Source of the DNA: a virus
Lineage: Duplodnaviria; Heunggongvirae; Uroviricota; Caudoviricetes
Direction: 5' to 3' (one strand)
Virus record (IMG/VR): IMGVR_UViG_3300038443_000757
Location: 1-20,613 of that record
DNA length: 20,613 bases
In this document: positions 1 through 18,169 of the stretch, piece after piece
Layout of the letters: every line of letters begins with the position of its first letter
Numbering within the stretch: position 1 is the first letter of the stretch
Position numbers and translations under genes: made by a program
Notes under the pieces: generated by a model
Told to the model about the DNA's origin: nothing
Seen by the model: only the letters and a program-made list of their open reading frames with translations
The model's database searches: none

Positions 1-8
1 TTGCGGAA

Positions 9-24
9 TGTTTCACGTGGAACA
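9..24. other. parS: parS-like site (Spo0J/ParB box)
   Basis: TGTTTCACGTGGAACA, the reverse complement of TGTTCCACGTGAAACA; lies between module core and RBS. Confidence 0.85.
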
Positions 25-55
25 TTCTAGCCTAAAAATAGAGGATGGATGAAAA

Positions 56-268
56 ATGATAATCAATAATAAACTGCTTAAAGCGTTAGATAATGCGGCT
101 ATTGAATATAATGTCGATTGGAACGCCGTTCATACGCCATTCGGAATTGTTTACGACATGTCTGATTCTTTTACAGGCAAAGAGCGCTATGAATTCGAAA
201 ATGGTTACACTTGCTTAACAGTCGAAAGTGTAGTTAAAGGATTGGAAGAAATGGCCGCTGATTTTTAG
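56..268 (+). CDS. Hypothetical protein, 70 aa, acidic
   Basis: RBS AGGATGGATGA then ATG; module hairpin overlaps the stop. Confidence 0.85.
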   Translation: MIINNKLLKALDNAAIEYNVDWNAVHTPFGIVYDMSDSFTGKERYEFENGYTCLTVESVVKGLEEMAADF

Positions 269-314
269 CGGCTTGTGTTGCGTGACCACTAAACAGCTAA
301 AGGATGGATGACAA

Positions 315-476
315 ATGACGTATCAAGTAGCAGTATGGGAAATCGGCAATAAATATAGTGGACAATGGATAACTGTACATAATGTGAAAAGCGAAAAAAG
401 TGCTCGTTCTACTGTTCGTCTTTCATATCCGCCGGACAAATACAAACAAGGCAAAGTAAAACAAGTAAACAGTTAA
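315..476 (+). CDS. Hypothetical protein, 53 aa, basic (MTYQVAVWEIGNKYSGQW...)
   Basis: Read by hand; RBS at 301-311, ATG 315, TAA 474-476. Confidence 0.8.
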   Translation: MTYQVAVWEIGNKYSGQWITVHNVKSEKSARSTVRLSYPPDKYKQGKVKQVNS

Positions 477-483
477 ATAAAAA

Positions 484-499
484 TGTTTCACGTGGAACA
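484..499. other. parS: parS-like site
   Basis: TGTTTCACGTGGAACA; its left half also forms the module hairpin with CGTGAAAC at 504-511. Confidence 0.85.
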
Positions 500-553
500 A
501 TCGCGTGAAACGTGTTGCGGCACTGCCGACAAAACTTAAAGGATGGATGAACA

Positions 554-820
554 ATGAGACTTACAAAAGAGGAAATGAAAGAACAACCTAGCAAGCCTTA
601 TGCACTTTGCGCAACTTCGTATCATGCTAAAATCGAAGTTTGGACTATTAACCATTTAGACTTTGATATCATCACTGCATCTATTGACAGCGGAGATATT
701 CGCAAATTTAAAATTCAAGAGGACAAAGAAGAACGTCAATATTTCACGATTCAAGGCAGGCGCGTATATTTGGATGAATGCGTTAAATATGGTTCGCCAT
801 GGCTTGCCGCTATTGAATAA
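554..820 (+). CDS. Hypothetical protein, 88 aa
   Basis: ORF track; module RBS at 540-550. Confidence 0.85.
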   Translation: MRLTKEEMKEQPSKPYALCATSYHAKIEVWTINHLDFDIITASIDSGDIRKFKIQEDKEERQYFTIQGRRVYLDECVKYGSPWLAAIE

Positions 821-890
821 CCTTAATAAGCTACGCCTAAACAGCGTAGCGTGTTGCGGTACCACTAAACAATAGAGGATGGATGATAAA

Positions 891-1121
891 ATGACACAAT
901 TTACAATGGAACAGCTTAAACAGAAAAACGCGTATGTAAAAATGGATACGGGTATTGGTTTTCCTGTCTACTTTACACGAACGCAAGCAGGAACATGGAA
1001 GCATAGCAAATTTGGTTATGAAATGTCATGCGGCGATTTACTGGATAGCATGAACAGCGGATTGTATAGCGCTGAACTATTGATTGCTAAAGACTTCGAT
1101 AATGACTATGCCGCATTTTAA
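891..1121 (+). CDS. Hypothetical protein, 76 aa
   Basis: ORF track 879..1121, start moved to the ATG after the RBS. Confidence 0.85.
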   Translation: MTQFTMEQLKQKNAYVKMDTGIGFPVYFTRTQAGTWKHSKFGYEMSCGDLLDSMNSGLYSAELLIAKDFDNDYAAF

Positions 1122-1168
1122 TGCGGCTTGTGTTGCGGTACCACTAAACAATAGAGGATGGATGAACA

Positions 1169-1369
1169 ATGTATGTAGTAGAATGCGAAGCTTTTATAAA
1201 TCGTGAACAAGAGGCATACGAAATGTCAAATGGAGGACGCATTTATGATATTTTATATTTCGTTGCTGTTAATGGTAGTCATGTCGTTAGTTCGATGCAA
1301 GAGGTATCAAAAGTAATAGATTTACTTTGTGAGGCTGGTTATGTTGTTAATATAAGCCGTTTTTCTTAA
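1169..1369 (+). CDS. Hypothetical protein, 66 aa
   Basis: ORF track; module RBS at 1155-1165. Confidence 0.85.
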   Translation: MYVVECEAFINREQEAYEMSNGGRIYDILYFVAVNGSHVVSSMQEVSKVIDLLCEAGYVVNISRFS

Positions 1370-1412
1370 ACAGGTTGCCCACTATTGATATAGTGGGCAG
1401 TGTTGCGGAAAA

Positions 1413-1428
1413 TGTTTCACGTGAAACA
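1413..1428. other. parS: parS-like site
   Basis: Perfect palindrome TGTTTCACGTGAAACA between core (1400) and RBS. Confidence 0.88.
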
Positions 1429-1460
1429 TTTCTAGCCTAAACAGAACAGGAATGATGAAC

Positions 1461-1841
1461 ATGGCAGTAACGACACGTAAAGCATTCAAGGAACAAGTAC
1501 AAGAACATATTTTATACATTATGTCAGATGAAGAAACAAATGACGTTAAAGAACAATTACAAAACGTTGTAGACGGTTTCAATAACTGGTACGATGCATA
1601 TGAAAAGAAACAGAATCCTAACAGATGGGCGGCTATGGCTGATTGGTTCATGGGCTTGCCTTCTGAAATTAGCGTTGAATATCGTCACTATGCAATTAGC
1701 GCACTTTTGCAACAATGGTTTGAAAATTGCGGCGAAGAATACAAGGAACGCGAAGGTAATGAAGAACAAACGTTTTATAATTCCTTGATTATTCGTGAAT
1801 TCCTTGTATTGTGCCGCAAATATGGTATTAATGCTTATTAA
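1461..1841 (+). CDS. Hypothetical protein, 126 aa, phage-type (DWFMGLPS motif)
   Basis: ORF track 1452..1841; RBS AGGAATGATGA at 1448-1458. Confidence 0.85.
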   Translation: MAVTTRKAFKEQVQEHILYIMSDEETNDVKEQLQNVVDGFNNWYDAYEKKQNPNRWAAMADWFMGLPSEISVEYRHYAISALLQQWFENCGEEYKEREGNEEQTFYNSLIIREFLVLCRKYGINAY

Positions 1842-1915
1842 AATTGTAAGGCCCGCCTAAACAGCGGGCAGTGTAGCGGACATACCGCAATAACATAAAA
1901 GGAATGATGAATAGT

Positions 1916-2131
1916 ATGACTAAAGTAGAAGCGGAAACAATGTTTAAAATGGAAATACTGCCGGGGCTTATTCGCGGTTTGGAATCTAATGGAATTATTG
2001 ATAAACCAGCACGTCGCATGGCATGGAATAACTTTGTGCAGGCATTATATGAAGACGGCGACATAACAGAAAAGCAATGTTATTCATGGGGCCATCCTGT
2101 ATGGCTTGAAACATGTTCCCCAAAAGGCTAA
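1916..2131 (+). CDS. Hypothetical protein, 71 aa (AWNNF...DGDITEKQ...W motif, reminiscent of small phage proteins)
   Basis: ORF track 1904..2131; RBS at 1900-1910. Confidence 0.85.
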   Translation: MTKVEAETMFKMEILPGLIRGLESNGIIDKPARRMAWNNFVQALYEDGDITEKQCYSWGHPVWLETCSPKG

Positions 2132-2147
2132 ACAACTAGGCCCAAAT

Positions 2148-2163
2148 TGTTCCACGTGAAACA
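2148..2163. other. parS: parS-like site
   Basis: TGTTCCACGTGAAACA at the centre of the extended inverted repeat 2140-2171. Confidence 0.9.
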
Positions 2164-2213
2164 ATTTGGGCAGTGTCGCGTTACCACTAAAAAATAGAAT
2201 GGATGGATGAACA

Positions 2214-2426
2214 ATGAGCATGAGAAATGAAGCCGTGAGAAGACTGGAAGCATTGCGGGAACGTGGTATTTCTGATACAGAAATATTAGAATACATTCTA
2301 TATCATTATTTAAGCGGCGACGCATCATGCGAAACGCTGGAAGCATTCGCACATTATGAATGTGATTTCTCTTTTGAAGAGGAAGAGGAAACAGAAGAGG
2401 AAACAGAAGAAGAGGAAGAGGATTAA
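2214..2426 (+). CDS. Hypothetical protein, 70 aa, with poly-Glu acidic tail
   Basis: ORF track; ends EEEEETEEETEEEEED. Confidence 0.85.
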   Translation: MSMRNEAVRRLEALRERGISDTEILEYILYHYLSGDASCETLEAFAHYECDFSFEEEEETEEETEEEEED

Positions 2427-2492
2427 AAGACGTGCCCGCCTAAACAGCGGGCCGTGTCGCGTTACCACTAAAACTTAAAGGATGGATGAAAA

Positions 2493-2663
2493 GTGAGATT
2501 ATACGTAGAAGAACAACATGTTGTAAATTCGAATGAGGTAGATTCTTTTATTGAAACAAAAGAGAAAAACGGGTTTACAGTCAAAGACATTTCATATTAC
2601 GTAGTTGACGAAAAAGTTAAAAAGCTTGTCATTATTGAAAAATGGAATAAATCAATTAGTTAA
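2493..2663 (+). CDS. Hypothetical protein, 56 aa (GTG start, MRLYVEEQHVV...)
   Basis: Read by hand; RBS at 2479-2489, TAA 2661-2663. Confidence 0.8.
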   Translation: MRLYVEEQHVVNSNEVDSFIETKEKNGFTVKDISYYVVDEKVKKLVIIEKWNKSIS

Positions 2664-2665
2664 AA

Positions 2666-2681
2666 TGTTTCACGTGGAACA
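2666..2681. other. parS: parS-like site
   Basis: TGTTTCACGTGGAACA; its right half pairs with ATGTTCCA (2689-2696) to form the module hairpin. Confidence 0.85.
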
Positions 2682-2736
2682 TTATCAAATGTTCCATTGT
2701 GTCGCGTTACCACTAAAACTTAAAGGATGGATGAAA

Positions 2737-3024
2737 ATGAAAACAGAATTTATCTATGTTAACGAAACGTCGAAGTTTTGGAAGCACTCATACAAAGTTT
2801 GGTTATCTGAATTTAATTACGTTATTGTTAATGCTGACTATGAACAAGATGCATTAGATTTTGCTATTGATTATGCAGAATCTCAAAATTGGAATGGATT
2901 ATTTTTAACAGAAGAAGAAAGAAAAGAAATAGAAAACGATGGTTTTTTAGATGACTATGTAAGTGGAGGTAATCACGGAAAATATCTTTCATCATTAAAT
3001 GTTACAATCGTTCAATTAGATTGA
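2737..3024 (+). CDS. Hypothetical protein, 95 aa, acidic
   Basis: 3' part of track ORF 2605..3024; start placed after the module RBS at 2724-2734. Confidence 0.85.
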   Translation: MKTEFIYVNETSKFWKHSYKVWLSEFNYVIVNADYEQDALDFAIDYAESQNWNGLFLTEEERKEIENDGFLDDYVSGGNHGKYLSSLNVTIVQLD

Positions 3025-3095
3025 ACCTAAACAGCCGCATAGTATTTATGCGGCTTGTGTTGCGTCATACTCTAAACAGAATAGGAATGATGAAT

Positions 3096-3329
3096 ATGGA
3101 AATTATCAAAAGGAAAACAGTGGAAATTAATAAATATGTGCATGTATCAATTGCCCATCGTAGCGATGGATTATTTGATGTTGCAGTTAAAACAAATTAT
3201 TTCCCTCCATTGACAAAATGGGAAATAGAAGAAAGTGAAGTACCAGCACGGGAAGGCATTTCAAGTATGCAGGTATATGGATATATTGAATACGAAGTTA
3301 AGCCAGCTTATTTATTTGAGAAAATTTAA
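3096..3329 (+). CDS. Hypothetical protein, 77 aa
   Basis: 3' part of track ORF 3021..3329; RBS at 3083-3093. Confidence 0.8.
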   Translation: MEIIKRKTVEINKYVHVSIAHRSDGLFDVAVKTNYFPPLTKWEIEESEVPAREGISSMQVYGYIEYEVKPAYLFEKI

Positions 3330-3340
3330 ACAAAACAAAA

Positions 3341-3356
3341 TGTTTCACGTGGAACA
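3341..3356. other. parS: parS-like site
   Basis: TGTTTCACGTGGAACA, inside the 71-bp repeat shared with 480-550. Confidence 0.85.
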
Positions 3357-3410
3357 ATCGCGTGAAACGTGTTGCGGCACTGCCGACAAAACTTAAAGGA
3401 TGGATGACAA

Positions 3411-3764
3411 ATGCAAGAACAAAAACAACTTATTACAGACGTTGAAGGCTTCGAACATGTAGAAGCGTTTTTAGTGCAAGCAGTGGGGAAACCGCTAAAG
3501 TTGCATATGAAAACATGCATGCCTAACAGCGATGAAACTTTTGTTGTTATTGCTGGCTTCGTTCATTCGTTTGAAATTCAGACATCATGCAATCGCGAAG
3601 GTTTTTGCATTCAATTAAGAAAACGTAACAGCGGATTATTTGACGGTACAGAAAACTTTTACGGCAACTTCGAAAAATTCGAATTGAAAACGTATGGAAT
3701 AAGTAAAGTTTTACGTGTTCTTTATAAAGATAAATCATTCTTTGAAATTGAAGTATTCATGTAA
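3411..3764 (+). CDS. Hypothetical protein, 117 aa
   Basis: ORF track; module RBS upstream. Confidence 0.85.
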   Translation: MQEQKQLITDVEGFEHVEAFLVQAVGKPLKLHMKTCMPNSDETFVVIAGFVHSFEIQTSCNREGFCIQLRKRNSGLFDGTENFYGNFEKFELKTYGISKVLRVLYKDKSFFEIEVFM

Positions 3765-3829
3765 TAATCTTGCCACGCTAAACAGCGTGGCGTGTCGCGT
3801 GACAACTAAAATAGATGGAGTGATGAAAA

Positions 3830-4018
3830 ATGGTTAAAGTTAATGAAATTGAAACTAGCTTTTACGAAGGCAAAGAAGTTAAAATAGTTTGCTTTTCTTG
3901 CCATCATGCAATATCTACACATGAAGTGACATTTGAAAGTGTTGTTAATAAACAGCGTATTCCACTATGTTATGAATGCCTTAAACAACTATTTAAAGAA
4001 ACAGCCGCTAATATATAG
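3830..4018 (+). CDS. Putative zinc-finger protein, 62 aa (CxxC...CxxC)
   Basis: CFSC...CYEC; RBS GGAGTGATGA. Confidence 0.75.
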   Translation: MVKVNEIETSFYEGKEVKIVCFSCHHAISTHEVTFESVVNKQRIPLCYECLKQLFKETAANI

Positions 4019-4070
4019 CGGCTTGTGTCGCGGTAAAACCGCTAAAACAAAAACAAAGGATGGATGACAA

Positions 4071-4499
4071 ATGTCTAAAGTAGAACACTTTCAATCTATT
4101 GTTAAATCTTATGGTGGATTTATTTTAAGCGATGGCACATGCAATCTTCAGCACATATTACCTAAAGCGTATGATTTATTAGAAGGCATGGAAGCTAACG
4201 AAGAATTACGCGCCTCTATCCTTACATGCTTCAACATTGAGGACATGGAATATGTTGAAAGTCATGGCTTGTTCATGTCACAATATCATGGAGAAGCTAC
4301 AATTCAAGAAAGTGCATATGAATCAGCTTCTTATGTTTGGAATGAAGACGTTTATAATTATTTCAACAACATTGCGCCTAGCGGCTATTATTTCGGCAGT
4401 AGTGAAGGCGATGGAGCTTGTATTGGATGGTTTAAAATTGAAGAAGAAGAATGTGAATGTGGAGATTTTGGTTGTAAAGTTTGTGGGGACGATGTTTAA
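4071..4499 (+). CDS. Hypothetical protein, 142 aa, acidic (APSGYYFGSSEGDG motif)
   Basis: ORF track; module RBS upstream. Confidence 0.88.
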   Translation: MSKVEHFQSIVKSYGGFILSDGTCNLQHILPKAYDLLEGMEANEELRASILTCFNIEDMEYVESHGLFMSQYHGEATIQESAYESASYVWNEDVYNYFNNIAPSGYYFGSSEGDGACIGWFKIEEEECECGDFGCKVCGDDV

Positions 4500-4568
4500 A
4501 ACACTAGGCACACTAAACAGTGTGCCGTGTCGCGTTAAACCAAACTAAACAGAATAGGAATGATGACT

Positions 4569-4691
4569 ATGCAAGAATTGAAAAACTATAAGAAAATGGA
4601 TTTAATTATTTTTATTTCTATTATATCTATCCCATTTACATTAGCTTTAATTGCTATCATTTATGCTATCTCATTTTTAGCGGCTAAATAG
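4569..4691 (+). CDS. Small membrane protein, 40 aa
   Basis: Read by hand; hydrophobic run LIIFISIISIPFTLALIAIIYAISFL; RBS at 4556-4566. Confidence 0.75.
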   Translation: MQELKNYKKMDLIIFISIISIPFTLALIAIIYAISFLAAK

Positions 4692-4738
4692 CCGCTTGTG
4701 TCGCGTTACACTCTAAAACAAAAAGGATGGATGAATGA

Positions 4739-5026
4739 ATGATTAAATTGACGCTTGAAGAATTGAAACAGCGTAAAGATAAATGGAAAACGGCTGTTAT
4801 TGTATTCGATCAAAAGAGTTTTGACGGGAATACTTACACACATGAAGAACGTTCTTACAAAGTTTCAAGCGATGCAAAATGGTTCGATGATAGTATGATT
4901 GGCATGTCTCTTATTGGCAACTGCTTGGACGGTATAGATTTAGGCGTTCGCCTTGACTTGTACATGAGATTGCTTCCAAGTGAAGGAACGCGATGGATTG
5001 TAGAATATTGCTACATTGTCGAATAA
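4739..5026 (+). CDS. Hypothetical protein, 95 aa (LDGxDxGVRLD...W-x-VEYCY motif, reminiscent of Bacillota mobile-element proteins)
   Basis: ORF track; module RBS at 4724-4734. Confidence 0.88.
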   Translation: MIKLTLEELKQRKDKWKTAVIVFDQKSFDGNTYTHEERSYKVSSDAKWFDDSMIGMSLIGNCLDGIDLGVRLDLYMRLLPSEGTRWIVEYCYIVE

Positions 5027-5093
5027 AACACAATGCCACGTATATAACGTGGCGTGTCGCGTTACCACTAAACAGTTAAAGGATGGATGAAAA

Positions 5094-5345
5094 ATGAAAT
5101 TGCAAAATGAGCTTCAAAATGTAGTTGATAAAATGGAAGAAATTAAAGAGAAGATTGGAAAACACGCGATAGCATTGAAAGAAAGTGGAAAATTTAAGGA
5201 CTTTGAAACAAGGCTTGCATGGGATTGCTTATATGCAGTAGTTGGAAGCAATACTATTTGTGAATGGTACAAAAAATATGACTGTAACGATAGTCATATT
5301 GAAACATTAGCAAAGAAAGCATTAAAGAAAGTTTATCAAATATAA
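5094..5345 (+). CDS. Hypothetical protein, 83 aa (RLAWD...NDSHIET motif)
   Basis: ORF track; module RBS upstream. Confidence 0.88.
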   Translation: MKLQNELQNVVDKMEEIKEKIGKHAIALKESGKFKDFETRLAWDCLYAVVGSNTICEWYKKYDCNDSHIETLAKKALKKVYQI

Positions 5346-5415
5346 ATAGAATGCCGCATGTTTTACATGCGGCTTGTGTTGCGTCAAACTACAATAACAA
5401 AGGATGGATGATAAA

Positions 5416-5625
5416 ATGATTAAAGTAACAGATAACGCATTAAACAAAGTTGGTCAAAGTGTAGATATTATTGTTCCTGTTTCACTCTTTAACAGAACAA
5501 AGAAAACAGTTAAACGTGTATTACATAAACGTCAAGCATTCGGCATGGATTTACTCTATGTACATTATGACGGTTTAAGTTTATTCGTAACAGAAGGCAA
5601 GAACGAAACATTTGTAATGCTTTAA
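5416..5625 (+). CDS. Hypothetical protein, 69 aa
   Basis: Track ORF 5404..5625, start moved to after the RBS. Confidence 0.85.
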   Translation: MIKVTDNALNKVGQSVDIIVPVSLFNRTKKTVKRVLHKRQAFGMDLLYVHYDGLSLFVTEGKNETFVML

Positions 5626-5639
5626 ATGTTTTATTGGAT

Positions 5640-5655
5640 TGTTTCACGTGAAACA
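5640..5655. other. parS: parS-like site
   Basis: TGTTTCACGTGAAACA inside the perfect 28-bp palindrome TTGGATTGTTTCACGTGAAACAATCCAA (5634-5661). Confidence 0.9.
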
Positions 5656-5704
5656 ATCCAAGTGTTGCGGACATACCGCAAATAACAGTAAGGGAATGAT
5701 GAAT

Positions 5705-5785
5705 ATGGCAAGTATGACAATTGAACAAATTAAACAATTAACGAGTAAAACAGTATGCCGCGCATGTCGCGGCAGTGTTGCGTGA
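5705..5785 (+). pseudogene. 26-codon ORF running into the next module; probable truncated cassette or micro-peptide
   Basis: MASMTIEQIKQLTSKTVCRACRGSVA; its TGA lies just after the core at 5775. Confidence 0.5.
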
Positions 5786-5812
5786 CCATTATAAAATAGA
5801 GGATGGATGAAA

Positions 5813-6061
5813 ATGAAAAACATTAAAACAGCAATAATTAACGTTTACGTTGAAATGGCTGGCAATACAGATGTTGTACTATTTGACAAACAATATTCTA
5901 AAGCTTTCTACATACCAGTAAGAGGACTAGAACACGAAAGCTTAAAAGAGTTAATCGAATTAGAATACTATGACGTTGAAGAAGTTAATGACACTATGAT
6001 TAATGAAATTATTTCCGCTATTAAATCAGTGGCATTACAGTTATCATTTATTGGCGACTAG
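5813..6061 (+). CDS. Hypothetical protein, 82 aa, acidic
   Basis: Track ORF 5807..6061; RBS at 5800-5810. Confidence 0.85.
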   Translation: MKNIKTAIINVYVEMAGNTDVVLFDKQYSKAFYIPVRGLEHESLKELIELEYYDVEEVNDTMINEIISAIKSVALQLSFIGD

Positions 6062-6165
6062 TTTTCTAGTCGCGGCGAAATTACAGATATGAAATAACAC
6101 AAACAGCCGCATGTTTTACATGCGGCTTGTGTCGCGGTACATTAAACAGTAAAGGATAGATGATG

Positions 6166-6309
6166 ATGAAAAAGATTAAAGTAAAACATACTTATACTTG
6201 TGTTGGATGCAAAGAACGAATTACAAGCAACATACCAAATAATACATTATGTTTATGGTGCCGTGCTAAACAGAACAGCAATAAAGAGTTAATGGAGGCT
6301 GTTAAATGA
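6166..6309 (+). CDS. Putative zinc-finger protein, 47 aa (CVGC...CLWC)
   Basis: Read by hand; RBS AGGATAGATGA. Confidence 0.7.
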   Translation: MKKIKVKHTYTCVGCKERITSNIPNNTLCLWCRAKQNSNKELMEAVK

Positions 6310-6395
6310 ATTACAACTATCGTTTAAATCGTAGCTTATTGGTCCTAGCATTCATTAATGGATTATTCTTATTATTCTACAAATTAGCGGCATAA
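6306..6395 (+). CDS. Small hydrophobic peptide, 29 aa
   Basis: Read by hand; GGAGG at 6294-6298; ATGA overlap with the upstream gene; ends inside the module hairpin. Confidence 0.6.
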   Translation: MNYNYRLNRSLLVLAFINGLFLLFYKLAA

Positions 6396-6450
6396 ACAGC
6401 CGCTAGTGTCGTGGTACATACCACAAATAACAGAAAAAGGAATGATTGAT

Positions 6451-6660
6451 ATGCAGAATTGGTATTTCGTTTGTTTTGTAAATGATAGGGTAATTCATGC
6501 CCAACATTTCCATACTGGTTATGAGAATGCACAACAAATTGCAAGCAACATGTATAATTTTGGTATAATTATTGAAGGCGAAACAGTAGAATTTACACGT
6601 GTTGTAGCTATATCAGAACAGCATGAAATTGCATTCGACGTTAGAGGACAAATTGACTAA
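6451..6660 (+). CDS. Hypothetical protein, 69 aa
   Basis: 3' part of track ORF 6406..6660; RBS AGGAATGATTGA. Confidence 0.82.
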   Translation: MQNWYFVCFVNDRVIHAQHFHTGYENAQQIASNMYNFGIIIEGETVEFTRVVAISEQHEIAFDVRGQID

Positions 6661-6722
6661 GCCGCTTATGCGGCTTGTGTCGTGGTACATACCACAAATA
6701 ACAATGAAGGATGGATGATAAA

Positions 6723-6971
6723 ATGAACGCGAAAAGAATTGTAGCATTAGGTGAAGAGGCAAACAAGTTTATTAGAAACATTGACAAGGTTGAAGCGCTG
6801 GAAAACAAAATTTCCGATATACTGGATAAAACGAAAGAAGCGGACTATTACGCTAATGATTTACAGAATTTATATGAAGCACTTACGACATTGCGCGAAG
6901 CAATGCAGGACGTGGACAATGCAATATCAAACATTCATTCCAGTGTTGAAGAGGATGAAGATAATTTGTAA
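6723..6971 (+). CDS. Hypothetical acidic coiled-coil protein, 82 aa
   Basis: Track ORF 6711..6971; heptad-like Leu/Ile pattern. Confidence 0.85.
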   Translation: MNAKRIVALGEEANKFIRNIDKVEALENKISDILDKTKEADYYANDLQNLYEALTTLREAMQDVDNAISNIHSSVEEDEDNL

Positions 6972-7030
6972 GCATAGCGCCTTAATTGGCGCGTGTCGCG
7001 TTACCATTATAAAACAAAGGAATGATGAAT

Positions 7031-7303
7031 ATGTGGCGTATTACTTATGATTGGCTAGACAAGAAAAAGATTAACATTCAATCTGCTAACTTCGATCAAA
7101 AAAAATGGGATGAATTGCCTAAAGAAGAAAAAACAAAAATCAAACTTTATGATGACGATGACAATCTGTATTACGATGGTGAAACGTCTTGGATTAATGC
7201 AGGCGAATCAAAAGCATTTCAGCCGCTTGACTGGGCGGCAGGATATGCAGGATGTACTTACATGAAGTATAAGGACAAAGATGGAGAATGGAAGGTGTTG
7301 TAA
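7031..7303 (+). CDS. Hypothetical protein, 90 aa (LYDDDDxxYYxG...PLD...AGCT motif)
   Basis: Track ORF 7022..7303; RBS upstream. Confidence 0.88.
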   Translation: MWRITYDWLDKKKINIQSANFDQKKWDELPKEEKTKIKLYDDDDNLYYDGETSWINAGESKAFQPLDWAAGYAGCTYMKYKDKDGEWKVL

Positions 7304-7304
7304 A

Positions 7305-7580
7305 ATGGGCAGAAGAAAAGTGGCTTATACAAAAGCAGAATGTCCACATTGTAAAAAATATTTCGGTAGAAATATGCTGGAGTATCATATTAGAGAAAAA
7401 TGTGTAATTGCAAAGAACAAGACTAATGGGTCAAAGGAAAAGATGCTTGCAGACAGATTAGAATATGTAAAAACTGCTACATTCGATGATTTAACATTAA
7501 CAATTGGTGAGATTCAAAAGGCTGGAAGATTAGAAGAATTCCAAGAATATTTTAAAAACATTACTAAACCCGCCGAATAA
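7305..7580 (+). CDS. C2HC-type zinc-finger protein, 91 aa
   Basis: CPHC-x11-H-x4-C; ATG 1 nt after the upstream stop. Confidence 0.75.
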   Translation: MGRRKVAYTKAECPHCKKYFGRNMLEYHIREKCVIAKNKTNGSKEKMLADRLEYVKTATFDDLTLTIGEIQKAGRLEEFQEYFKNITKPAE

Positions 7581-7608
7581 AGCGGGTTTTGTGTTGCGGA
7601 CTTCGCAT

Positions 7609-7624
7609 TGTTCCACGTGGAACA
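7609..7624. other. parS: parS-like site
   Basis: Palindrome TGTTCCACGTGGAACA between core (7591) and RBS. Confidence 0.85.
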
Positions 7625-7653
7625 TTATCAAACAATAGAGGATGGATGATAAA

Positions 7654-8091
7654 ATGAAATTGTTAGCAGATGTAGTAAAACGTGCAGAAGAAAAACAAAA
7701 CGCTGTTAATGCTACACATGTAAGAAAGGAAGAAGTTGAACAACTTTTCCTTTCCATCTGTTACAAGCACATGACAGAATTTAAATCAATCTTTAAAGTT
7801 GTGGAAACAAAAGATGCAATTAATAATAATGACCGCTGTTATGGTGCATTGATTCGCATTGCCGATCGTCCTACTTCATGGAGTAGTGATGGATGGAAAA
7901 TTGCAATTTCTGATACTTACAATAGAAAGACATGGGAAAAGGATGTTAGTTTACGTGTTGGATATAATGCTGGGACGTATGACGGCAAAAAGATTCCATT
8001 CGACTACAATCAAACAGATGTTCAACTTACATTATTGTTTGAAAATGCATTACGCTTGCTTGCTTCAATGAAACTGAATAGAATGATTTAA
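7654..8091 (+). CDS. Hypothetical protein, 145 aa
   Basis: Track ORF 7642..8091, start moved to after the RBS. Confidence 0.87.
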   Translation: MKLLADVVKRAEEKQNAVNATHVRKEEVEQLFLSICYKHMTEFKSIFKVVETKDAINNNDRCYGALIRIADRPTSWSSDGWKIAISDTYNRKTWEKDVSLRVGYNAGTYDGKKIPFDYNQTDVQLTLLFENALRLLASMKLNRMI

Positions 8092-8157
8092 CCTAAACAG
8101 CGGACATTAATTGTCCGCTTGTGTTGCGGTACCATTAAACTTTAGGGGATGATTGAA

Positions 8158-8439
8158 ATGATTATTGTATTCGAATGTGGTATGTCTAAAGGACAAATAG
8201 TTGAAGTTGATTCAGATATTACACGTACTTATTGGCGCTTCGTTGTTAAAATGGAAGACAACAAAGTCTTTGAAGGCGAATCATATTCGACGCCTAAACA
8301 TTGGAGCAATGAACGTGTGGCGAAGGAATTGATTGAATGGGGAATTCATGAGTTGGGCGAAGAAATTGATTATTACGGAATATTCAATCTTAACGATGAA
8401 GATAGTCCAATCATTGATTCAATTCACGTGCTCGCATAA
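8158..8439 (+). CDS. Hypothetical protein, 93 aa, acidic
   Basis: Track ORF 8149..8439; exact start uncertain. Confidence 0.82.
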   Translation: MIIVFECGMSKGQIVEVDSDITRTYWRFVVKMEDNKVFEGESYSTPKHWSNERVAKELIEWGIHELGEEIDYYGIFNLNDEDSPIIDSIHVLA

Positions 8440-8489
8440 TGCGAGCAGTGTCGCGGTATACACAAATACAAAAATAAATGATGATGGAC

Positions 8490-8519
8490 TTGCATAATTC
8501 AACGGGATACGTGTATACT
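8490..8519 (+). promoter_or_regulatory. Possible sigma-A promoter for the helicase
   Basis: TTGCAT-N18-TATACT. Confidence 0.5.
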
Positions 8520-8570
8520 AATAAGAGTTAGACAAATGCAATATAAAACAAGCTAATGGAGATGATGAAG

Positions 8571-10610
8571 ATGGCACGTACACCAAAAAAGGTTGTAGTA
8601 CCAATGAAAGATGAATTACTCAAAGGATTGAATGAATCGCAATTGAAAGCTGTTCTTGCAACGGAAGGTGCAATTCAAATTTGTGCAGTAGCGGGAAGTG
8701 GAAAAACGCGCGTACTTACTACGCGAACAGCGTACATGATTAACGTACTTAACATCATTTCTGATTCAATTGCACTTATGACATTCACTAAAAAAGCCGC
8801 TACTGAAATGGAAGAACGTTTGAAGCCTCTTATTAGTAAAACAGATTTAGAAGCAATGTTTTGTGGCACTTCTCACTCGTTTGGCTATAAAGTATTGGCA
8901 CGTGAATACAAAGCAATGAACCATCCTTTGCAGGACTTTTGCAATCCGAAGCGTGATGCAAAAAATCCCGGTGTTCTTATTGGTAACAGTCAAATGTGGT
9001 TTGCTGAAGAAGTAAAACAGAACTTGCTTAAAAGCTTTATGATTGAAGCAGACGTAAAGAAGGCATTAAAAGATGCACACAACAAAGTGTTGTTAGCAGT
9101 AGTTGGGAATGCAAAGAACAAAGGTATGGATTGCAATCAATTTGAAGCAGAACACGCAATGGATGCCTCTCCTACAATGTGGGCATACATTAACTTTTAC
9201 AAGCAATATGAACAAATGAAATATGCAAGGCTTGCAATTGATGGTGATGATATGCTTTTCCTCACTGTTCGTTTGTTTCGTGAACATCCAGAAATTCTTA
9301 AAAAGTATCAAGGTAAAATTAAGTACATTATGATTGACGAAACACAAGACAACAATCCTACGCAATACGAATTAGCAAAAAAACTTATTCATCCTGAAAA
9401 CAACATTTTTGTTGTTGGTGATGACGATCAATCCATGTATAGCTTTCGTGGCGCTTCGCCTGAATCTTTCGTACAATTTGACAAACTGTTTTCAAATGTT
9501 CAAATGATTGGCTTGGAGCATAATTATCGTAGCCATCCTGAAATTCTGAATGTTGCAAACAAACTAATTGAAAATAACAAATTCAGAATTCAAAAGAAGC
9601 TTATTCCGCATAGTCAAGCAGATGGCAAGGCTGTTTTCTACTCGCACCATAAAAATGAAACAGAAGAAGCAAATGAGGCAGTAGAGGAAATTAAGACGTT
9701 GAAAGAAATTAAAGGCATTGAATACAAAGACATGTTTGTACTTTATCGTACCAATGCTCAAAACAAAGAATTTGAAGATGTTCTTATCTCTAATGGCATT
9801 CCATACGTTATTCATGGCGGTATGTCATTTTATGAGCGCAAAGAAGTAAAAGATATTATGTCATACCTTCGTCTTGTACTGAATACAAGTGACGATGAAG
9901 CATTTGAACGAGTATACAATACTCCAAGCCGCTATGTAGGTAAAGCATACCTTGCTAAATTGAAGGCAGTTAAAGGGTGTTCTTTGTGGGATGCAGTAAA
10001 CAAAGTAAATCTTACGCCTACAGAAAAAACAGCAAGTAACAGCTTCAAAGTATTGGTTAACAGCATGAAACAGCTTATGAAAGAAGATAACAAAACGGCG
10101 GCAGATTTAATTAAATACTTGCTTGAAAATGGTTATGCTGAACATTTGAAAAAGAATGATGATGAAGACGAAGAAGAAAAGGAAAATCCAATCGTTAACA
10201 AAATGATTCACTTTGCAAGCCGTTTTGAAAAGCTTGACAGTCTTGTGAAATATGTTGACATGATGATTAAGAAAAGACGTTCTAGTGTCAATGGCGTTCA
10301 GATGATGTCAGTTCATCGTAGTAAAGGATTAGAGGCTGAAGTTGTTTTTGGAATTGGTGTAAATGAAAATCTTCTTCCGCACTACAAGTCAATTGAAAAG
10401 GAAATTTGTGGTGATGATTCAGCAATTGAAGAGGAAAGAAGACTTGCTTATGTGCTGGTAACACGTGCTAAACAGTTATGCTTCCTCTCTTCAACGTCAA
10501 CATTCAATGGAAAAGATTGTGGTGCTAGTCGATTCATTGAAGAAATGGGATTAGAAGCTGTTATTGATGAAGACAAAGAAATTGAAGAAAATGAGGAAGA
10601 AGCGGTTTAA
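8571..10610 (+). CDS. Superfamily 1A ATP-dependent DNA helicase, UvrD/PcrA/Rep family
   Basis: Motifs AGSGKT (I), TFTKKAA (Ia), DETQD (II), VGDDDQSMYSFRGA (III), NYRS (IV), MSVHRSKGLE (V), EERRLAYVLVTRA (VI); RBS GGAGATGATGA. Confidence 0.95.
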   Translation: MARTPKKVVVPMKDELLKGLNESQLKAVLATEGAIQICAVAGSGKTRVLTTRTAYMINVLNIISDSIALMTFTKKAATEMEERLKPLISKTDLEAMFCGTSHSFGYKVLAREYKAMNHPLQDFCNPKRDAKNPGVLIGNSQMWFAEEVKQNLLKSFMIEADVKKALKDAHNKVLLAVVGNAKNKGMDCNQFEAEHAMDASPTMWAYINFYKQYEQMKYARLAIDGDDMLFLTVRLFREHPEILKKYQGKIKYIMIDETQDNNPTQYELAKKLIHPENNIFVVGDDDQSMYSFRGASPESFVQFDKLFSNVQMIGLEHNYRSHPEILNVANKLIENNKFRIQKKLIPHSQADGKAVFYSHHKNETEEANEAVEEIKTLKEIKGIEYKDMFVLYRTNAQNKEFEDVLISNGIPYVIHGGMSFYERKEVKDIMSYLRLVLNTSDDEAFERVYNTPSRYVGKAYLAKLKAVKGCSLWDAVNKVNLTPTEKTASNSFKVLVNSMKQLMKEDNKTAADLIKYLLENGYAEHLKKNDDEDEEEKENPIVNKMIHFASRFEKLDSLVKYVDMMIKKRRSSVNGVQMMSVHRSKGLEAEVVFGIGVNENLLPHYKSIEKEICGDDSAIEEERRLAYVLVTRAKQLCFLSSTSTFNGKDCGASRFIEEMGLEAVIDEDKEIEENEEEAV

Positions 10611-10860: not shown

Positions 10861-10945
10861 TGAGAGAGTAGCATAAAGCTACTCTCTCATTAATAGAATA
10901 ATAGTGTAGCGGATAACCGCAAATAACAACGTGGAGTGATGAACA
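10861..10945 (+). repeat. Outlying module: 12-bp stem hairpin, GTGTAGCG core (10904), GGAGTGATGA RBS
   Basis: TGAGAGAGTAGC/GCTACTCTCTCA; here the core is 14 nt from the hairpin; core tail GTGTAGCGGATAACCGCAAATAAC resembles those at 1871 and 5662. Confidence 0.8.
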
Positions 10946-11188: not shown

Positions 11189-11194
11189 ACAGTG

Positions 11195-11259
11195 AAGAGG
11201 CGCTAACTATGCGCCTCTTTTGTGTCGCGTGACCAAAAAAATTAAGGGAGATGATTAAA
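11195..11259 (+). repeat. Outlying module: hairpin + GTGTCGCG (11222) + RBS
   Basis: AAGAGGCGC/GCGCCTCTT, then TTGTGTCGCGTGACCAAAA. Confidence 0.85.
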
Positions 11260-11796
11260 GTGAAAAAGGGTTTTGTTATTAGCACTGCAATTGCAATGAC
11301 GTTCGCACTGTCTGCTTGTGGTAGCAATGGAAACGTACTAAACAGCAACAAATCTGCATTGCAACAAAATGTAAAGGTTGAACAGGTTGACGCTTCGCTT
11401 ATTACTGCTGATGAACAGAAATATCTTGATGATTTAAGTAGTTACATGAACAATATGCAAACGTCACTGGATGCGCTTAAACAATTGCTTGACAGTCTTA
11501 GTCTTAAAGATACGGAATTGTGGCAAAAGCAATTTTCTGATATTACGGAAGTATACAGATTGTATATTGAAATTCTTAAGGCACAACCTTATCCTGAACG
11601 CCTGAAAGATGTTCACGATGCCTTCCTTGAAGCTACTACTGAACAATATAATGCTATTTTGCTACTGAAAGAAGGGCTTGACAATTCTGATTCTTCTAAA
11701 GTGAGTGAAGGTGTTGAGCACTTGAACAAGGCTAAAGTTGAAATTGAACGTTATGGCCTGTATGTTACAGAATTTAAAACTGGCAAACATAATTAA
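11260..11796 (+). CDS. Putative lipoprotein, 178 aa, alpha-helical
   Basis: MKKGFVISTAIAMTFALSAC: basic N-terminus, hydrophobic core, lipobox LSAC. Confidence 0.85.
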   Translation: MKKGFVISTAIAMTFALSACGSNGNVLNSNKSALQQNVKVEQVDASLITADEQKYLDDLSSYMNNMQTSLDALKQLLDSLSLKDTELWQKQFSDITEVYRLYIEILKAQPYPERLKDVHDAFLEATTEQYNAILLLKEGLDNSDSSKVSEGVEHLNKAKVEIERYGLYVTEFKTGKHN

Positions 11797-13769: not shown

Positions 13770-14405
13770 ATGACCTTGAAAATTGTCCAAACTATCAATC
13801 AATCCATTGTTGATTATGTAGCTAAGGCAATCGAAGAATATGAAAAAGGCAGAGAAGGTTACATTGACAACTATGAAAGAGCAAGTATGTATAAACCTTT
13901 GTCAAGCTACTTCACTAAGCAAATTGGTGGTGGGTGTAATGGAGAAGTATTTGAATATGAAGGTTATGCTGTCAAATATTTTTCTGGTGCTGAACAATAT
14001 TGCAATGATGGTAAAATGCTTGAAGCTCTTAATGGTTCTCCGTACTTCCCTACAGTATATGCCCATGATAAAGATTTTATGATTATGGAAAGAATAATTG
14101 GATACTCTTTAGATGATTATTGTGTAGAATACGATAAGTTAAAGAATAAACTTCAAGTTTCTCCAGCTTTTAAATATCACCTAGAGAAAGCGTTTGAGCA
14201 TGCTGACAAAAGAGGCGTGGAGCTTACTGATTTAAAGAAAAGTAATATCATGATAAATGAAAGCGGCCTTCCTGTTATTGTTGATGCTGGAACATTTTAC
14301 CTTAAAGGTGAATTCCCTCCATTTAATATTGGCGGCAAGAGTTATTGCCTTGGATGGTGCAAGGAATTCATGGAGCAATATTGTAAATTTGAACTTGCAG
14401 TCTAA
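13770..14405 (+). CDS. Ser/Thr protein-kinase-like protein, 211 aa
   Basis: IGGGCNGEVF (Gly loop), AVKY, DLKKSNIM (catalytic loop), IVDAG (DFG-equivalent). Confidence 0.88.
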   Translation: MTLKIVQTINQSIVDYVAKAIEEYEKGREGYIDNYERASMYKPLSSYFTKQIGGGCNGEVFEYEGYAVKYFSGAEQYCNDGKMLEALNGSPYFPTVYAHDKDFMIMERIIGYSLDDYCVEYDKLKNKLQVSPAFKYHLEKAFEHADKRGVELTDLKKSNIMINESGLPVIVDAGTFYLKGEFPPFNIGGKSYCLGWCKEFMEQYCKFELAV

Positions 14406-14429
14406 TAACCAATAAGGGAGATAATGACA

Positions 14430-15110
14430 ATGGAACATATTAAAAATGAAACTGTTATTGTCGGCGGCATTAGTAAGATGCTTGTTCAAAAGATTGAAAA
14501 AATGATTGATGAACATGGCATTAATAATCTTAAAAAACTTGGATATGGCGCATTTGGAATTGTTTATGCACTTGGGAATTATGCAATTAAAATTTATGCA
14601 GGTTGTTTCAATGAAGATGAAGAATCTAATTGGGATGCTGTTAACTTGTTAAAGCTTCAAGGAAAAGATTCTCCATTCCTTAAATTATATGCTTATCATC
14701 ATAAAAAATTCATGATTTACGAGCGAGTGATGACAAAAAATTTGAGTACTTATAATTATCAATCTCCAATTTTGCATAGCCTTGATTTGAAGAAGGGTTT
14801 TGCAGAACACTATATGAATTGTTTGAGATATGCATTTGAGAGAGGATTATTGCCTTTCGACGCTAAGACTGACAATGTAATGATCAAGAACGGACTTCCA
14901 GTTATTGTTGATGTCGGCAATTTCTTGGAAAATGGTGGAACTTTCTATGGTGAAACATACTCTTATAAAACTTTTGAAGACTTCTTTGCCGATAGACGTT
15001 TTGACAATAAACTTAATGAGAAGAAAGTTAAGGAATTTTATCAAAATCATGTAAGTAAGGGGTATTCAATTAAGGAAACGCATGACACACTGAAAGAATT
15101 CGTAATGTGA
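14430..15110 (+). CDS. Ser/Thr protein-kinase-like protein, about 226 aa
   Basis: LGYGAFGIVY, AIKIY, DAKTDNVM, IVDVG; alternative start at 14424. Confidence 0.88.
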   Translation: MEHIKNETVIVGGISKMLVQKIEKMIDEHGINNLKKLGYGAFGIVYALGNYAIKIYAGCFNEDEESNWDAVNLLKLQGKDSPFLKLYAYHHKKFMIYERVMTKNLSTYNYQSPILHSLDLKKGFAEHYMNCLRYAFERGLLPFDAKTDNVMIKNGLPVIVDVGNFLENGGTFYGETYSYKTFEDFFADRRFDNKLNEKKVKEFYQNHVSKGYSIKETHDTLKEFVM

Positions 15111-15117
15111 CATAAAT

Positions 15118-15133
15118 TGTTTCACGTGGAACA
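15118..15133. other. parS: parS-like site
   Basis: TGTTTCACGTGGAACA, 7 nt after the kinase stop. Confidence 0.85.
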
Positions 15134-17432: not shown

Positions 17433-17462
17433 AAATTAAAACCAAATCAAGGAGAGATGAAC

Positions 17463-18153: not shown

Positions 18154-18169
18154 TGTTCCACGTGAAACA
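18154..18169. other. parS: parS-like site
   Basis: TGTTCCACGTGAAACA, 1 nt after the stop. Confidence 0.9.

Follow-up and report, generated by a model that had tools for sequence, protein, structure and literature searches.

The first 20,613 nucleotides (nt) of the virus record IMGVR_UViG_3300038443_000757, here called the window, open with an array of 28 small open reading frames (ORFs) on the + strand (56-8439; 26-149 amino acids each), and a compact module is repeated between them. From 5' to 3', the module consists of a stop codon, a hairpin, 0-3 nt, the octamer GTGTYGCG, an A/C-rich linker, a Shine-Dalgarno (SD) sequence as ribosome-binding site (RBS), and a start codon. The modules are a real, strongly non-random, lineage-specific family of cis-elements. 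Their most plausible role, to which somewhat less than even confidence is attached, would be to punctuate one long operon of about 30 accessory genes at the level of RNA, by processing, stabilisation or coordinated control of the transcript. This reading is favoured because the array has no promoters of its own, a promoter and leader lie upstream of it, the hairpins lack U-tracts, no phage transcription factor was found, and relatives have RNA hairpins at the same positions.

Structure of the module

The window contains 25 exact copies of GTGTYGCG. Of these, 23 fall on the + strand within 1-8455, compared with a mean of 0.59 and a maximum of 4 in dinucleotide shuffles. Three further modules carry one-base variants of the octamer, GTGTAGCG at 1871 and GTGTCGTG at 6406 and 6677, and another copy is cut by the start of the window (1-6, TTGCGG) and is complete at genome position 169035. 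These make 27 modules for the 28 ORFs; the original prediction, that 26 of the ORFs have a module of their own and that a 27th closes the array, is borne out by the octamer counts and variants. The two ORFs without a module, 6306-6395 and 7305-7580, both abut the preceding gene. Every module lies on the coding strand, after a stop codon and before the next start, and N genes carry N+1 modules, one ahead of the first gene and one past the last. Genome-wide, the modules are restricted to about 11.7 kb, from the array start at 168768, two modules ahead of the window start, to 11229, crossing a 182-nt overlap of the record ends and including two outlying copies 3' of a helicase gene (10904 and 11222). 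Other genomic matches to GTGTYGCG (for example at 31180 and 117563, and two on the - strand) have no adjoining hairpin or RBS, and these isolated matches in the 169 kb look like chance.

The stems are 5-14 base pairs (bp) long, with a mean of 8.7, and the loops average 5.4 nt. A perfect Watson-Crick stem of at least 6 bp ending no more than 3 nt from the octamer was found in 45 of 49 modules from three phage lineages, the corresponding figures being 0.8% for shuffled flanks and 1.6% for positions drawn at random from the genome. RNAalifold returned no structure from a MAFFT alignment of the modules, in which the stems are out of register, and stems were therefore counted sequence by sequence. 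The order of hairpin, octamer and RBS is as originally predicted, but the conserved block extends to about 12 nt (GTGTYGCG-K-T-A-C), and in three modules the octamer lies 11-14 nt from the hairpin instead of directly beside it, which indicates that the octamer is more than a hairpin tail. Position 5 of the octamer is never G. From the end of the octamer to the start codon there are 29-38 nt in 24 of 27 genes. The SD sequence has a form of its own in the array, GGATGGATGA or GGAATGATGA: 17 of the 18 genomic copies of GGATGGATGA are within the array, and GGAG, which precedes 64 of 167 long ORFs genome-wide, precedes none of the array ORFs of at least 100 amino acids. A third form, GGAGTGATGA, is the RBS of the modules at 3792 (array) and 10904 (outlying).

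In nine modules, termed class B, the 3' half of the octamer pairs with a downstream CCGC or CCAC to form a small second hairpin. The pairing covaries, with GCGG..CCGC in five modules, GUGG..CCAC in four, and no mixed cases. Because the change of C7 to U is compensated by the CCAC partner, the octamer would be read as a single strand, most simply RNA. Across the stems there are 421 Watson-Crick pairs, and the non-Watson-Crick appositions, five G.U to one A.C, also favour RNA. A reading in double-stranded DNA would make the octamer an operator, at which a DNA-binding protein of phage or host origin would silence the block or time its activity (for example during lysogeny), possibly with ParB at the parS sites that stud the array. 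The sharply bounded block of about 12 bp is typical of a protein site, the class A form of the module (GTGTTGCGGTACCACTAAAC) is a 14/20 imperfect palindrome around GGTACC when read by eye, and the array adjoins a palindrome-rich control region. The strict orientation, fixed place and compensated C-to-T change of the modules point to a single-stranded reading instead, and the TTACCAC variants show little or no palindromy; an operator is considered improbable.

Several readings of the module as a structured or functional nucleic acid of another kind were also considered. Rfam covariance models gave nothing at the gathering score, with only chance-level matches at E up to 5, and ARAGORN found no transfer RNA (tRNA) or transfer-messenger RNA, nor was there a tRNA-like minihelix. 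A ribozyme or trans-acting RNA was suggested by the lack of G at position 5, as at the NUH site of the hammerhead, and was rejected with no Rfam match, no CUGANGA..GAAA core and no antisense partner. Readings as a Chi site, Ter site, primase site (T7 GTGTC) or oriT nick would leave the fixed intergenic place beside a hairpin and RBS unexplained and were set aside.

Transcription of the array

A consensus scan found no sigma-A-like site of at least 10/12 on the + strand in the 9 kb of the array, while in the next 12 kb such sites stand at the gene starts 11839, 13014, 16096 and 17404. Upstream of the array is a non-coding control region of 3 kb (genome 165.6-168.0 kb; L065:5600-7990), and a candidate array promoter, TTGACG-16-TGCTAT, is found at genome 167971, about 800 nt upstream of the first module. 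The leader that follows is about 760 nt long, free of ORFs and 55-58% GC (genome 167971-168767 including the promoter; L065:7972-8768). It opens with CA-rich repeats (ACGCAAGGCA, four times), folds better than shuffled sequences on the + strand (z -1.9, against +0.4 on the - strand), and has no Rfam match. The same layout, with a TTGCAT-17-TAATAT promoter and a leader, is present in L213, a contig of a related lineage (L059), and TATCAACACG opens the leader in both phages about 0.8 kb before the array; past the first 30 nt or so, the two leaders are not alignable.

The hairpins do not resemble terminators in their downstream sequence. By the d'Aubenton-Carafa rule (d-score >0), one of 30 scores as an intrinsic terminator; the others fail because the tract after the stem is GUGUYGCG and not a U-run, with n_T of 0.5-3.2 compared with 5.8 for a full T-run. 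In the phage genome, no Sigma70 r2, r4 or r4_2 domain, T7-type RNA polymerase, DxDGD motif or NusG was found. A weak sigma r4 match proved to be an HNH homing endonuclease, and an unannotated ORF of 930 amino acids is the TrwB-like ATPase of Tyroviruses. The promoter scan, the upstream promoter and leader, the absence of factors and the terminator scores, taken together, favour one long transcript that reads through the modules. The search of the replicon that the original prediction called for thus turned up neither a sigma factor nor an RNA polymerase gene, and the two tyrosine recombinases that it did reveal are distant from the array. Of the three functions first proposed for the module, a terminator plus a promoter for a polymerase or sigma factor encoded by the element itself is the least supported, no sigma, RNA polymerase or NusG having been found and the hairpins lacking U-tracts.

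A promoter of another sort might nevertheless be present, with the octamer and KTAC forming a single element used by host RNA polymerase together with a small sigma-like or appropriator protein of the phage, or with an alternative sigma factor of the host, so that each gene would be its own unit. The order of hairpin, conserved element, RBS and ORF is that of the promoter-early stem-loop (PeSL) cassettes of T4-type phages and of the Tyrovirus Kirov, sigma-A promoters are missing in the array and used elsewhere in the phage, and a module stands upstream of the first gene. Only the segment downstream of the octamer accommodates insertions of 16-25 nt (parS), as a 5' untranslated region would, and the 29-38 nt from octamer to start leave room for a short leader. 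Against this, no sigma or RNA polymerase homologue was detected in the phage, a second conserved element at -35-type spacing is absent, the element is GC-rich, and the spacing of a sigma-54 promoter is off by 2-3 nt as the sequence reads. To our knowledge, the octamer element resembles no Bacillus sigma consensus. The tight coupling to a hairpin at 0-3 nt would be unnecessary for a promoter, and the upstream promoter and long leader are positionally homologous to those of a lineage with plain RNA hairpin modules. A lineage-specific promoter is regarded as rather unlikely. Among readings by eye, a sigma-A promoter with the octamer or hairpin as its -35 and a TRTG -16 region were both rejected, as were a sigma-54 promoter (GG to GC spacing 2-3 nt short) and an extracytoplasmic-function-type TGAAAC-N16-CGTA, which fits two parS-derived modules only.

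The modules could also be factor-dependent pause sites or weak terminators, overridden by processive antitermination that is set up in the structured leader, in which case only polymerase started upstream would read the array. The octamer fills the 7-9 nt after the stem, where the U-tract of a terminator would be, and some modules (for example 7591, 11222 and genome 169035) have TT to TTTT together with GTGTT. The elemental pause consensus is G-10, Y-1, G+1, which TGCG fits, and only on the + strand does the GC-rich leader, which has no ORFs, fold better than shuffled sequence. On the other side, 29 of 30 modules fail the classical terminator score, the leader has no Rfam family and is unconserved past its first 30 nt or so in the related lineage, and no NusG-type factor was found, although Q-type factors were not searched for. 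Pausing with antitermination is considered fairly unlikely.

The module in related phages

Relatives were located by using the helicase just downstream of the array as an anchor. Two metagenomic lineages, L057/L058 and L066, have helicases 74% and 67% identical to that of the window, with pairwise identities of 62-74% across the three octamer-bearing lineages. The module is present in 14 + 2 copies in L057/L058 and in four copies in L066, where it takes the dialect forms TTGTWGCGTTACCAYTA and GAGAGGATTGATT. The octamer and the hairpin 0-3 nt upstream are kept in these lineages, and the other intergenic sequence is randomised. Stem sequences at orthologous positions are unrelated; in the closing module, for example, the hairpin is CTCGCATAATGCGAG in the window and GCCATACAGAAATGTATGGC in L057, with the octamer and the closing tail kept. 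Since orthologous hairpins are unrelated while the octamer is kept, the stem appears to be selected as structure and the octamer as sequence. The original prediction would have been undermined if the motif were a known host-chromosomal repeat, but a scan for the class A pattern in 185,579 species genomes (GTDB), JGI metagenomes and IMG/VR gave single chance matches only.

In more distant lineages (L059/L060, L061 and L062; helicase 53% identical), the array lacks the octamer and has a bipartite hairpin of about 65 nt at the same intercistronic positions. This element has an outer stem of TCAGAA and TTCTGA, an internal loop of ATACTATG and CATAAATG, and a variable inner stem between them; its copies span L059:353-9365, L061:508-4370 and L062:903-5353. 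Compensatory changes occur in 10 of 11 predicted pairs and G.U pairs are frequent, which marks it as an RNA structure of the type found at RNase III sites, and the element is probably an RNase III processing site. Some cargo genes are common to lineages with different punctuation. The promoter TTGCAT-18-TATACT that follows the closing module is conserved in L057 and L066 and is similar to the ACTTGCATA promoter in L059, L061 and L062.

Proposed mechanism

Among the three functions first proposed, an RNA processing or antitermination site fits best, given the lack of array promoters, the upstream promoter and leader, and the RNA hairpins of relatives. If the module acts in RNA, transcription would most likely start at the host-type promoter at genome 167971 and pass through the untranslated leader into the array. 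Each hairpin would be a generic, sequence-independent RNA structure, inefficient as a terminator, that protects the 3' end of the upstream cistron, and the GUGUYGCG(K)UAC block would be a sequence-specific site for a trans-acting factor. This factor would most likely be an endoribonuclease or an RNA-binding regulator, which cuts or marks the transcript between hairpin and RBS. Cutting would yield monocistronic messages with a 3' hairpin and a protected 5' end. In class B modules the second hairpin would protect this end; otherwise, a ribosome bound at the strong SD sequence specific to the array (GGAUGGAUGA), 18-25 nt away, would do so. In B. subtilis, 3' stem-loops stop 3' exonucleases, and a 5'-proximal stem-loop or bound ribosome stops RNase J1. 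A cut between hairpin and SD sequence could therefore leave two stable products. The stabiliser of the early RNA of phage SP82 adjoins an RNase III site.

A bolder reading, judged rather unlikely, is that about 30 accessory messages carry the octamer as a shared address tag, by which the whole block could be cut, stabilised or switched off together. The tag might be read by an endoribonuclease or translational regulator of the phage, comparable to T4 RegB or RegA, or by a host enzyme, and related lineages would have swapped in an RNase III-type hairpin or ordinary promoters as interchangeable punctuation systems. Candidate trans factors were sought among genes specific to the octamer lineages and rejected, one protein of 181 amino acids being a lipoprotein and one of 80 amino acids having no family. 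The sole recognisable RNase-type gene of the phage is PIN_4/YlaK-like.

Several observations weigh against punctuation at the level of RNA. The characterised Tyrovirus Kirov has an equivalent array with ordinary sigma-A promoters and hairpins and lacks GTGTYGCG, so that a hairpin-plus-promoter design is a live alternative. The excess of G.U appositions is small (five to one), and since the stems are perfect inverted repeats in all other respects, they could function at the DNA level. In class A modules, the octamer has no consistent pairing partner in minimum-free-energy folds. The proposed upstream promoter has a poor -10 (TGCTAT), and no RNase III of the phage was found. The known B. subtilis endonucleases also lack specificity for the octamer, RNase Y having a weak preference for UU-G|A, EndoA cutting UACAU, and RNase III requiring long duplexes (PMC11780869).

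Variation among the modules and gene exchange

Hairpin types and linker types assort independently within the window. The linker is shared and the hairpin different in the pairs with octamers at 851 and 1130, 2454 and 2699, and 6406 and 6677, while the hairpin is shared and the linker different in the pairs beginning at 1851 and 2434 and at 5353 and 6105. The modules beginning at 485 and 3342 are 95% identical throughout. Because of this independent assortment, and because identical linkers precede unrelated ORFs, breakpoints appear to cluster at the octamer, with others at the RBS and start codon. As a by-product of the proposed role in RNA, the repeated modules would act as short homologies at which genes get swapped.

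The individual modules, all on the + strand, are as follows. The module cut by the window start (1-55) has the octamer tail, a parS palindrome in the linker and RBS GGATGGATGA, and its full copy with hairpin is at genome 169012-169042. The next is at 253-314 (hairpin 253-272, TT, octamer 275-282, linker and RBS), followed by 485-553, with a hairpin on a parS half-site, octamer 512-519, linker GCACTGCCGACAAAAC and RBS, and by 830-890, with a CTAAACA-loop hairpin, octamer 851-858, linker GTACCACTAAAC and RBS. The module at 1110-1168 (octamer 1130-1137) has a hairpin and the linker of its predecessor, and that at 1376-1460 has a hairpin, octamer 1400-1407, parS in the linker and RBS GGAATGATGA. 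At 1851-1915 the variant octamer GTGTAGCG (1871-1878) is followed by the second small hairpin GCGG-ACATA-CCGC, and at 2140-2213 a 14-bp hairpin is formed around parS (octamer 2173-2180). The module at 2434-2492 has the hairpin type of 1851 (octamer 2454-2461), and that at 2674-2736 has a hairpin overlapping parS (octamer 2699-2706). Then come 3033-3095 (hairpin, octamer 3057-3064, RBS GGAATGATGA), 3342-3410 (the near-copy of the module at 485, octamer 3369-3376), 3772-3829 (hairpin, octamer 3792-3799, variant RBS GGAGTGATGA), 4003-4070 (hairpin, octamer 4025-4032, second hairpin GCGG-TAAAA-CCGC) and 4507-4568 (hairpin, octamer 4527-4534).

In the module at 4679-4738 (octamer 4698-4705), the stop codon of the preceding gene is inside the hairpin, and in that at 5035-5093 (hairpin, octamer 5054-5061) the linker is 91% identical to that of the module with octamer at 275. 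The hairpin of 5353-5415 (octamer 5376-5383) is common to 6105-6165 (octamer 6129-6136, RBS GGATAGATGA). Between these are 5634-5704, with a hairpin around parS, octamer 5662-5669 and second hairpin GCGG-ACATA-CCGC, and 5756-5812 (octamer 5775-5782), which is within an ORF of 26 amino acids. This ORF (5705-5785) has its own RBS and a CxxC motif, reads through the hairpin and octamer, and stops at a TGA right after. The variant octamer GTGTCGTG is found at 6406-6413 in the module 6385-6450, where the second hairpin GTGG-TACATA-CCAC compensates the C-to-T change, and at 6677-6684 in the module 6659-6722. The remaining modules are at 6977-7030 (5-bp GC hairpin, octamer 6993-7000), 7566-7653 (hairpin with a T-run, octamer 7591-7598, parS in the linker), 8099-8157 (hairpin, octamer 8121-8128, RBS GGGGATGATTGA) and 8429-8489, the closing module, which has a hairpin, octamer 8448-8455 and a tail (GTATACACAAATACAAAAATAAATGATGATGGAC) conserved in L057, and no gene of its own. 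Of the outlying modules, that at 10861-10945 has a 12-bp hairpin, a 14-nt spacer, GTGTAGCG at 10904-10911, second hairpin GCGG-ATAA-CCGC and RBS GGAGTGATGA, with an orthologous module at L057:6735, and that at 11194-11250 has a hairpin, TT and octamer 11222-11229 ahead of a lipoprotein gene.

The mosaic structure raises the question of mobile cassettes, the third function first proposed. A single-strand recombination site formed by hairpin and octamer is a less likely explanation, and a dedicated site of this kind, with a tyrosine or HUH recombinase acting on single-stranded DNA as in integron attC sites or elements like repetitive extragenic palindromes (REPs), is very improbable. In favour of such a site, the phage encodes two tyrosine recombinases, the promoterless array genes share one orientation and are flanked as N genes by N+1 sites, and hairpins and linkers assort independently with a break at the octamer. 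Cargo is nearly all different between lineages while the flanks are syntenic and the modules persist; at 50-78% amino acid identity, the relatives are too diverged to place breakpoints. Metagenome contigs also have window-type modules beside unfamiliar cargo, which is weak evidence, since contigs from the four soil and rhizosphere runs break at the repeated modules and parS and the short sides of the joints (20-44 nt) are untrustworthy. Against a dedicated site, the five array genes common to the window and L057 are strictly collinear, and the one indel, window 4025-4568 compared with the L057 2289/2293 junction, left no module in L057, as would not be expected of site-specific insertion or excision. 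There is one gene-order swap relative to L059. The stems are perfect and variable in sequence, extrahelical bases and R/L boxes are absent, and the 5' flank offers no complement to the octamer. Phage_integrase matches are found only at 25.1 kb and 142.5 kb, at distances of 14 kb and 26 kb from the array. There is no match to a Y1 HUH transposase (Y1_Tnp), and the hairpin sequence is unconserved, unlike in REPs, bacterial interspersed mosaic elements or IS200/IS605-type elements. The identical linkers before unrelated ORFs place breakpoints at the RBS and start as well, as homologous exchange does. Collinearity, the module-less indel, the perfect variable stems, and the lack of a Y1 transposase or nearby recombinase together disfavour an integron-like site-specific system, and the collinear shared genes appear to fit homologous exchange, as at T4 PeSLs, better. 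A mobile-cassette site is supported in a weak sense only, that of cargo turnover with recombination at the octamer, and its stronger sense is disfavoured by the collinear genes, the indel and the lack of integron features.

Comparison with known systems

The array is best filed with the punctuated early and accessory arrays of T4 (PeSL), T7, SP82 and SPO1, among which its promoter-free design and octamer are unusual. The PeSL cassettes of T4-type phages (PMC2839356, Arbiol et al. 2010; PMC4122927, Comeau et al. 2014) likewise have a repeated stem-loop, a conserved element and an RBS between the small variable ORFs of a hyperplastic region, and a stem of at least 6 bp is present in 45 of the 49 modules here. 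Relatives among the T4-type phages differ by gene replacement beside the units, with the repeats as points of homologous exchange, which is the accepted explanation of gene turnover at PeSLs (PMC4122927), and the cargo turnover and mosaic hairpins and linkers of the modules would fit the same pattern. PeSLs, however, include a host sigma-70 early promoter after the stem-loop, whereas the modules have no -35 or -10 and no conserved element besides the GC-rich octamer, and the block appears to be served by one upstream promoter and leader.

Phage T7 and the SPO1-group phage SP82 reportedly have RNase III sites between their early genes, with an adjacent 5' stabiliser. The array resembles these polycistronic early RNAs in having intercistronic hairpins followed by strong SD sequences, which would give 3' hairpins and protected 5' ends, and the L059, L061 and L062 relatives have long bipartite hairpins at the same positions. 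The difference is that an RNase III site spans a duplex of about two helical turns (at least 20 bp or so) that frequently contains an internal loop, as in the modules of those relatives, but the stems of the window are too short at 5-14 bp, and specificity would lie in the single-stranded octamer. We know of no Bacillus RNase that recognises this octamer. The host-takeover module of SPO1 is said to have the same genomic setting of small same-strand ORFs. Genes 262-275 of Kirov, an example of the early-gene arrays at the genome end of Tyroviruses, likewise form a run of small ORFs on one strand behind a long non-coding control region, again in a large Bacillus phage, but are served by ordinary sigma-A promoters and hairpins without GTGTYGCG.

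Integron cassettes are similar in that promoterless ORFs of one orientation are each followed by a hairpin site with a conserved 3' core, at which mosaic segments meet. An attC site, however, is an imperfect palindrome with R''/L''-L'/R' boxes, a GTTRRRY/RYYYAAC pair and extrahelical bases, none of which is found in the modules, whose stems are perfect and whose octamer has no complementary 5' partner. The order of cassettes is conserved where integrons vary it, and instead of an adjacent IntI integrase, attI and Pc, a non-coding region precedes the array and a helicase gene follows it. Intrinsic terminators share the GC-rich stem of 5-14 bp and loop of 3-10 nt after a stop codon, with a conserved tract in the next 8 nt. 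The tract here is GUGUYGCG and not a U-run, the score is failed by 29 of 30, and the tract may be 11-14 nt from the stem.

The phage and its genes

The window covers the initial 20.6 kb of a virus record that is 169,219 bp long, with 35% GC, and classed as linear in IMG/VR. The two ends of the record (window 1-182; genome 169038-169219) share an overlap of 182 nt that differs at a single position, G/A at window 128. A short terminal repeat, like the 284-bp repeats of Tyroviruses, may have been collapsed here, or the overlap may stem from the assembly of a circular or concatemeric form. The product of the 930-amino acid ORF (137-140 kb) shares about 51% identity with the TrwB-like ATPase found in Tsamsa, Kirov, Thrax, FADO and other Tyroviruses. 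On the basis of this identity and the helicase neighbourhood, the phage is taken to be a large, uncultured temperate siphovirus of the Bacillus type, distantly related to the Tyroviruses, which are giant temperate Bacillus siphoviruses. The same phage is present in several soil and rhizosphere metagenomes, whereas near and distant modes of blastn against 50,697 phage records found no relatives, and a related-locus search with the helicase as query found no additional loci. The words intergenic, hairpin, promoter and terminator are absent from the papers on Tsamsa (PMC3903500) and on Tyroviruses (PMC9703825).

None of the 28 array proteins has detectable similarity to another, in agreement with the original prediction, and none reached a Pfam family. 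Nine match PHROGs, all of unknown function, and the gene at 1452-1841 is 47% identical to Kirov_266; the host-takeover or anti-defence role first suggested for the cargo is conjectural. The five genes common to the window and L057 do not include any of the four adjoining the helicase, while the helicase and downstream genes are syntenic. The UvrD/PcrA-like helicase gene (8556-10610) has the sigma-A-type promoter TTGCAT-18-TATACT (8490-8519, + strand), the first host-type promoter past the array. The outlying module at 11194 precedes a gene for a predicted lipoprotein of 181 amino acids (11251-11796; signal peptide and LSACG lipobox). The lipoprotein is conserved in L057 and may function in superinfection exclusion.

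The palindrome TGTTNCACGTGNAACA, a Bacillus-type parS, occurs twelve times (window 9-24, 484-499, 1413-1428, 2148-2163, 2666-2681, 3341-3356, 5640-5655, 7609-7624, 15118-15133 and 18154-18169; genome 168792 and 169046). Ten of the copies are part of modules, where they make up the hairpin or interrupt the linker. In L066, all four modules have parS. The service of parS as a stem suggests that any palindrome can fill the hairpin slot. The copies also suggest that the phage recruits host ParB/Spo0J, and it is probably a plasmid-prophage. The control region upstream of the array contains a perfect palindrome like a Noc-binding site (ATTTCCCGGGAAAT, 166149), a DnaA box (166751), 76-nt tandem iterons and nine of the 14 genomic AAGCGCTT palindromes (cre-like, TGTAAGCGCTT), and palindromes of this sort are also found ahead of the array in L213. 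Given the Bacillus-type parS and the Noc-site-like palindromes, soil Bacillaceae are candidate hosts. Further downstream in the window, 13770-14405 and 14424-15110 are adjacent paralogues, 34% identical, each with weak, sub-threshold matches to protein kinase domains. Strong sigma-A-type promoters precede genes for a GmrSD_N protein (DUF262, ParB-like nuclease fold; 16184-17344) and a DUF2786/DUF7168 protein (17457-18152), a pair also kept in L059 and L061.

Implications

Large phages keep their fastest-evolving genes, those for host takeover, anti-defence and superinfection exclusion, in arrays such as this one, and the expression and reshuffling of such arrays have been detailed for few model phages only. 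The array offers a clean comparison made by nature, one genomic slot having three types of punctuation in related phages: the octamer with a hairpin, a long RNase III-like hairpin, and a promoter with a hairpin. If the module is a mere weak terminator or stabiliser, the result is a useful but ordinary annotation. A reader of the octamer, if found, could bring to light a sequence-specific activity, in RNA processing or regulation, that is new for Bacillus or its phages, and the module could serve as a compact part for multi-gene operons in Firmicutes.

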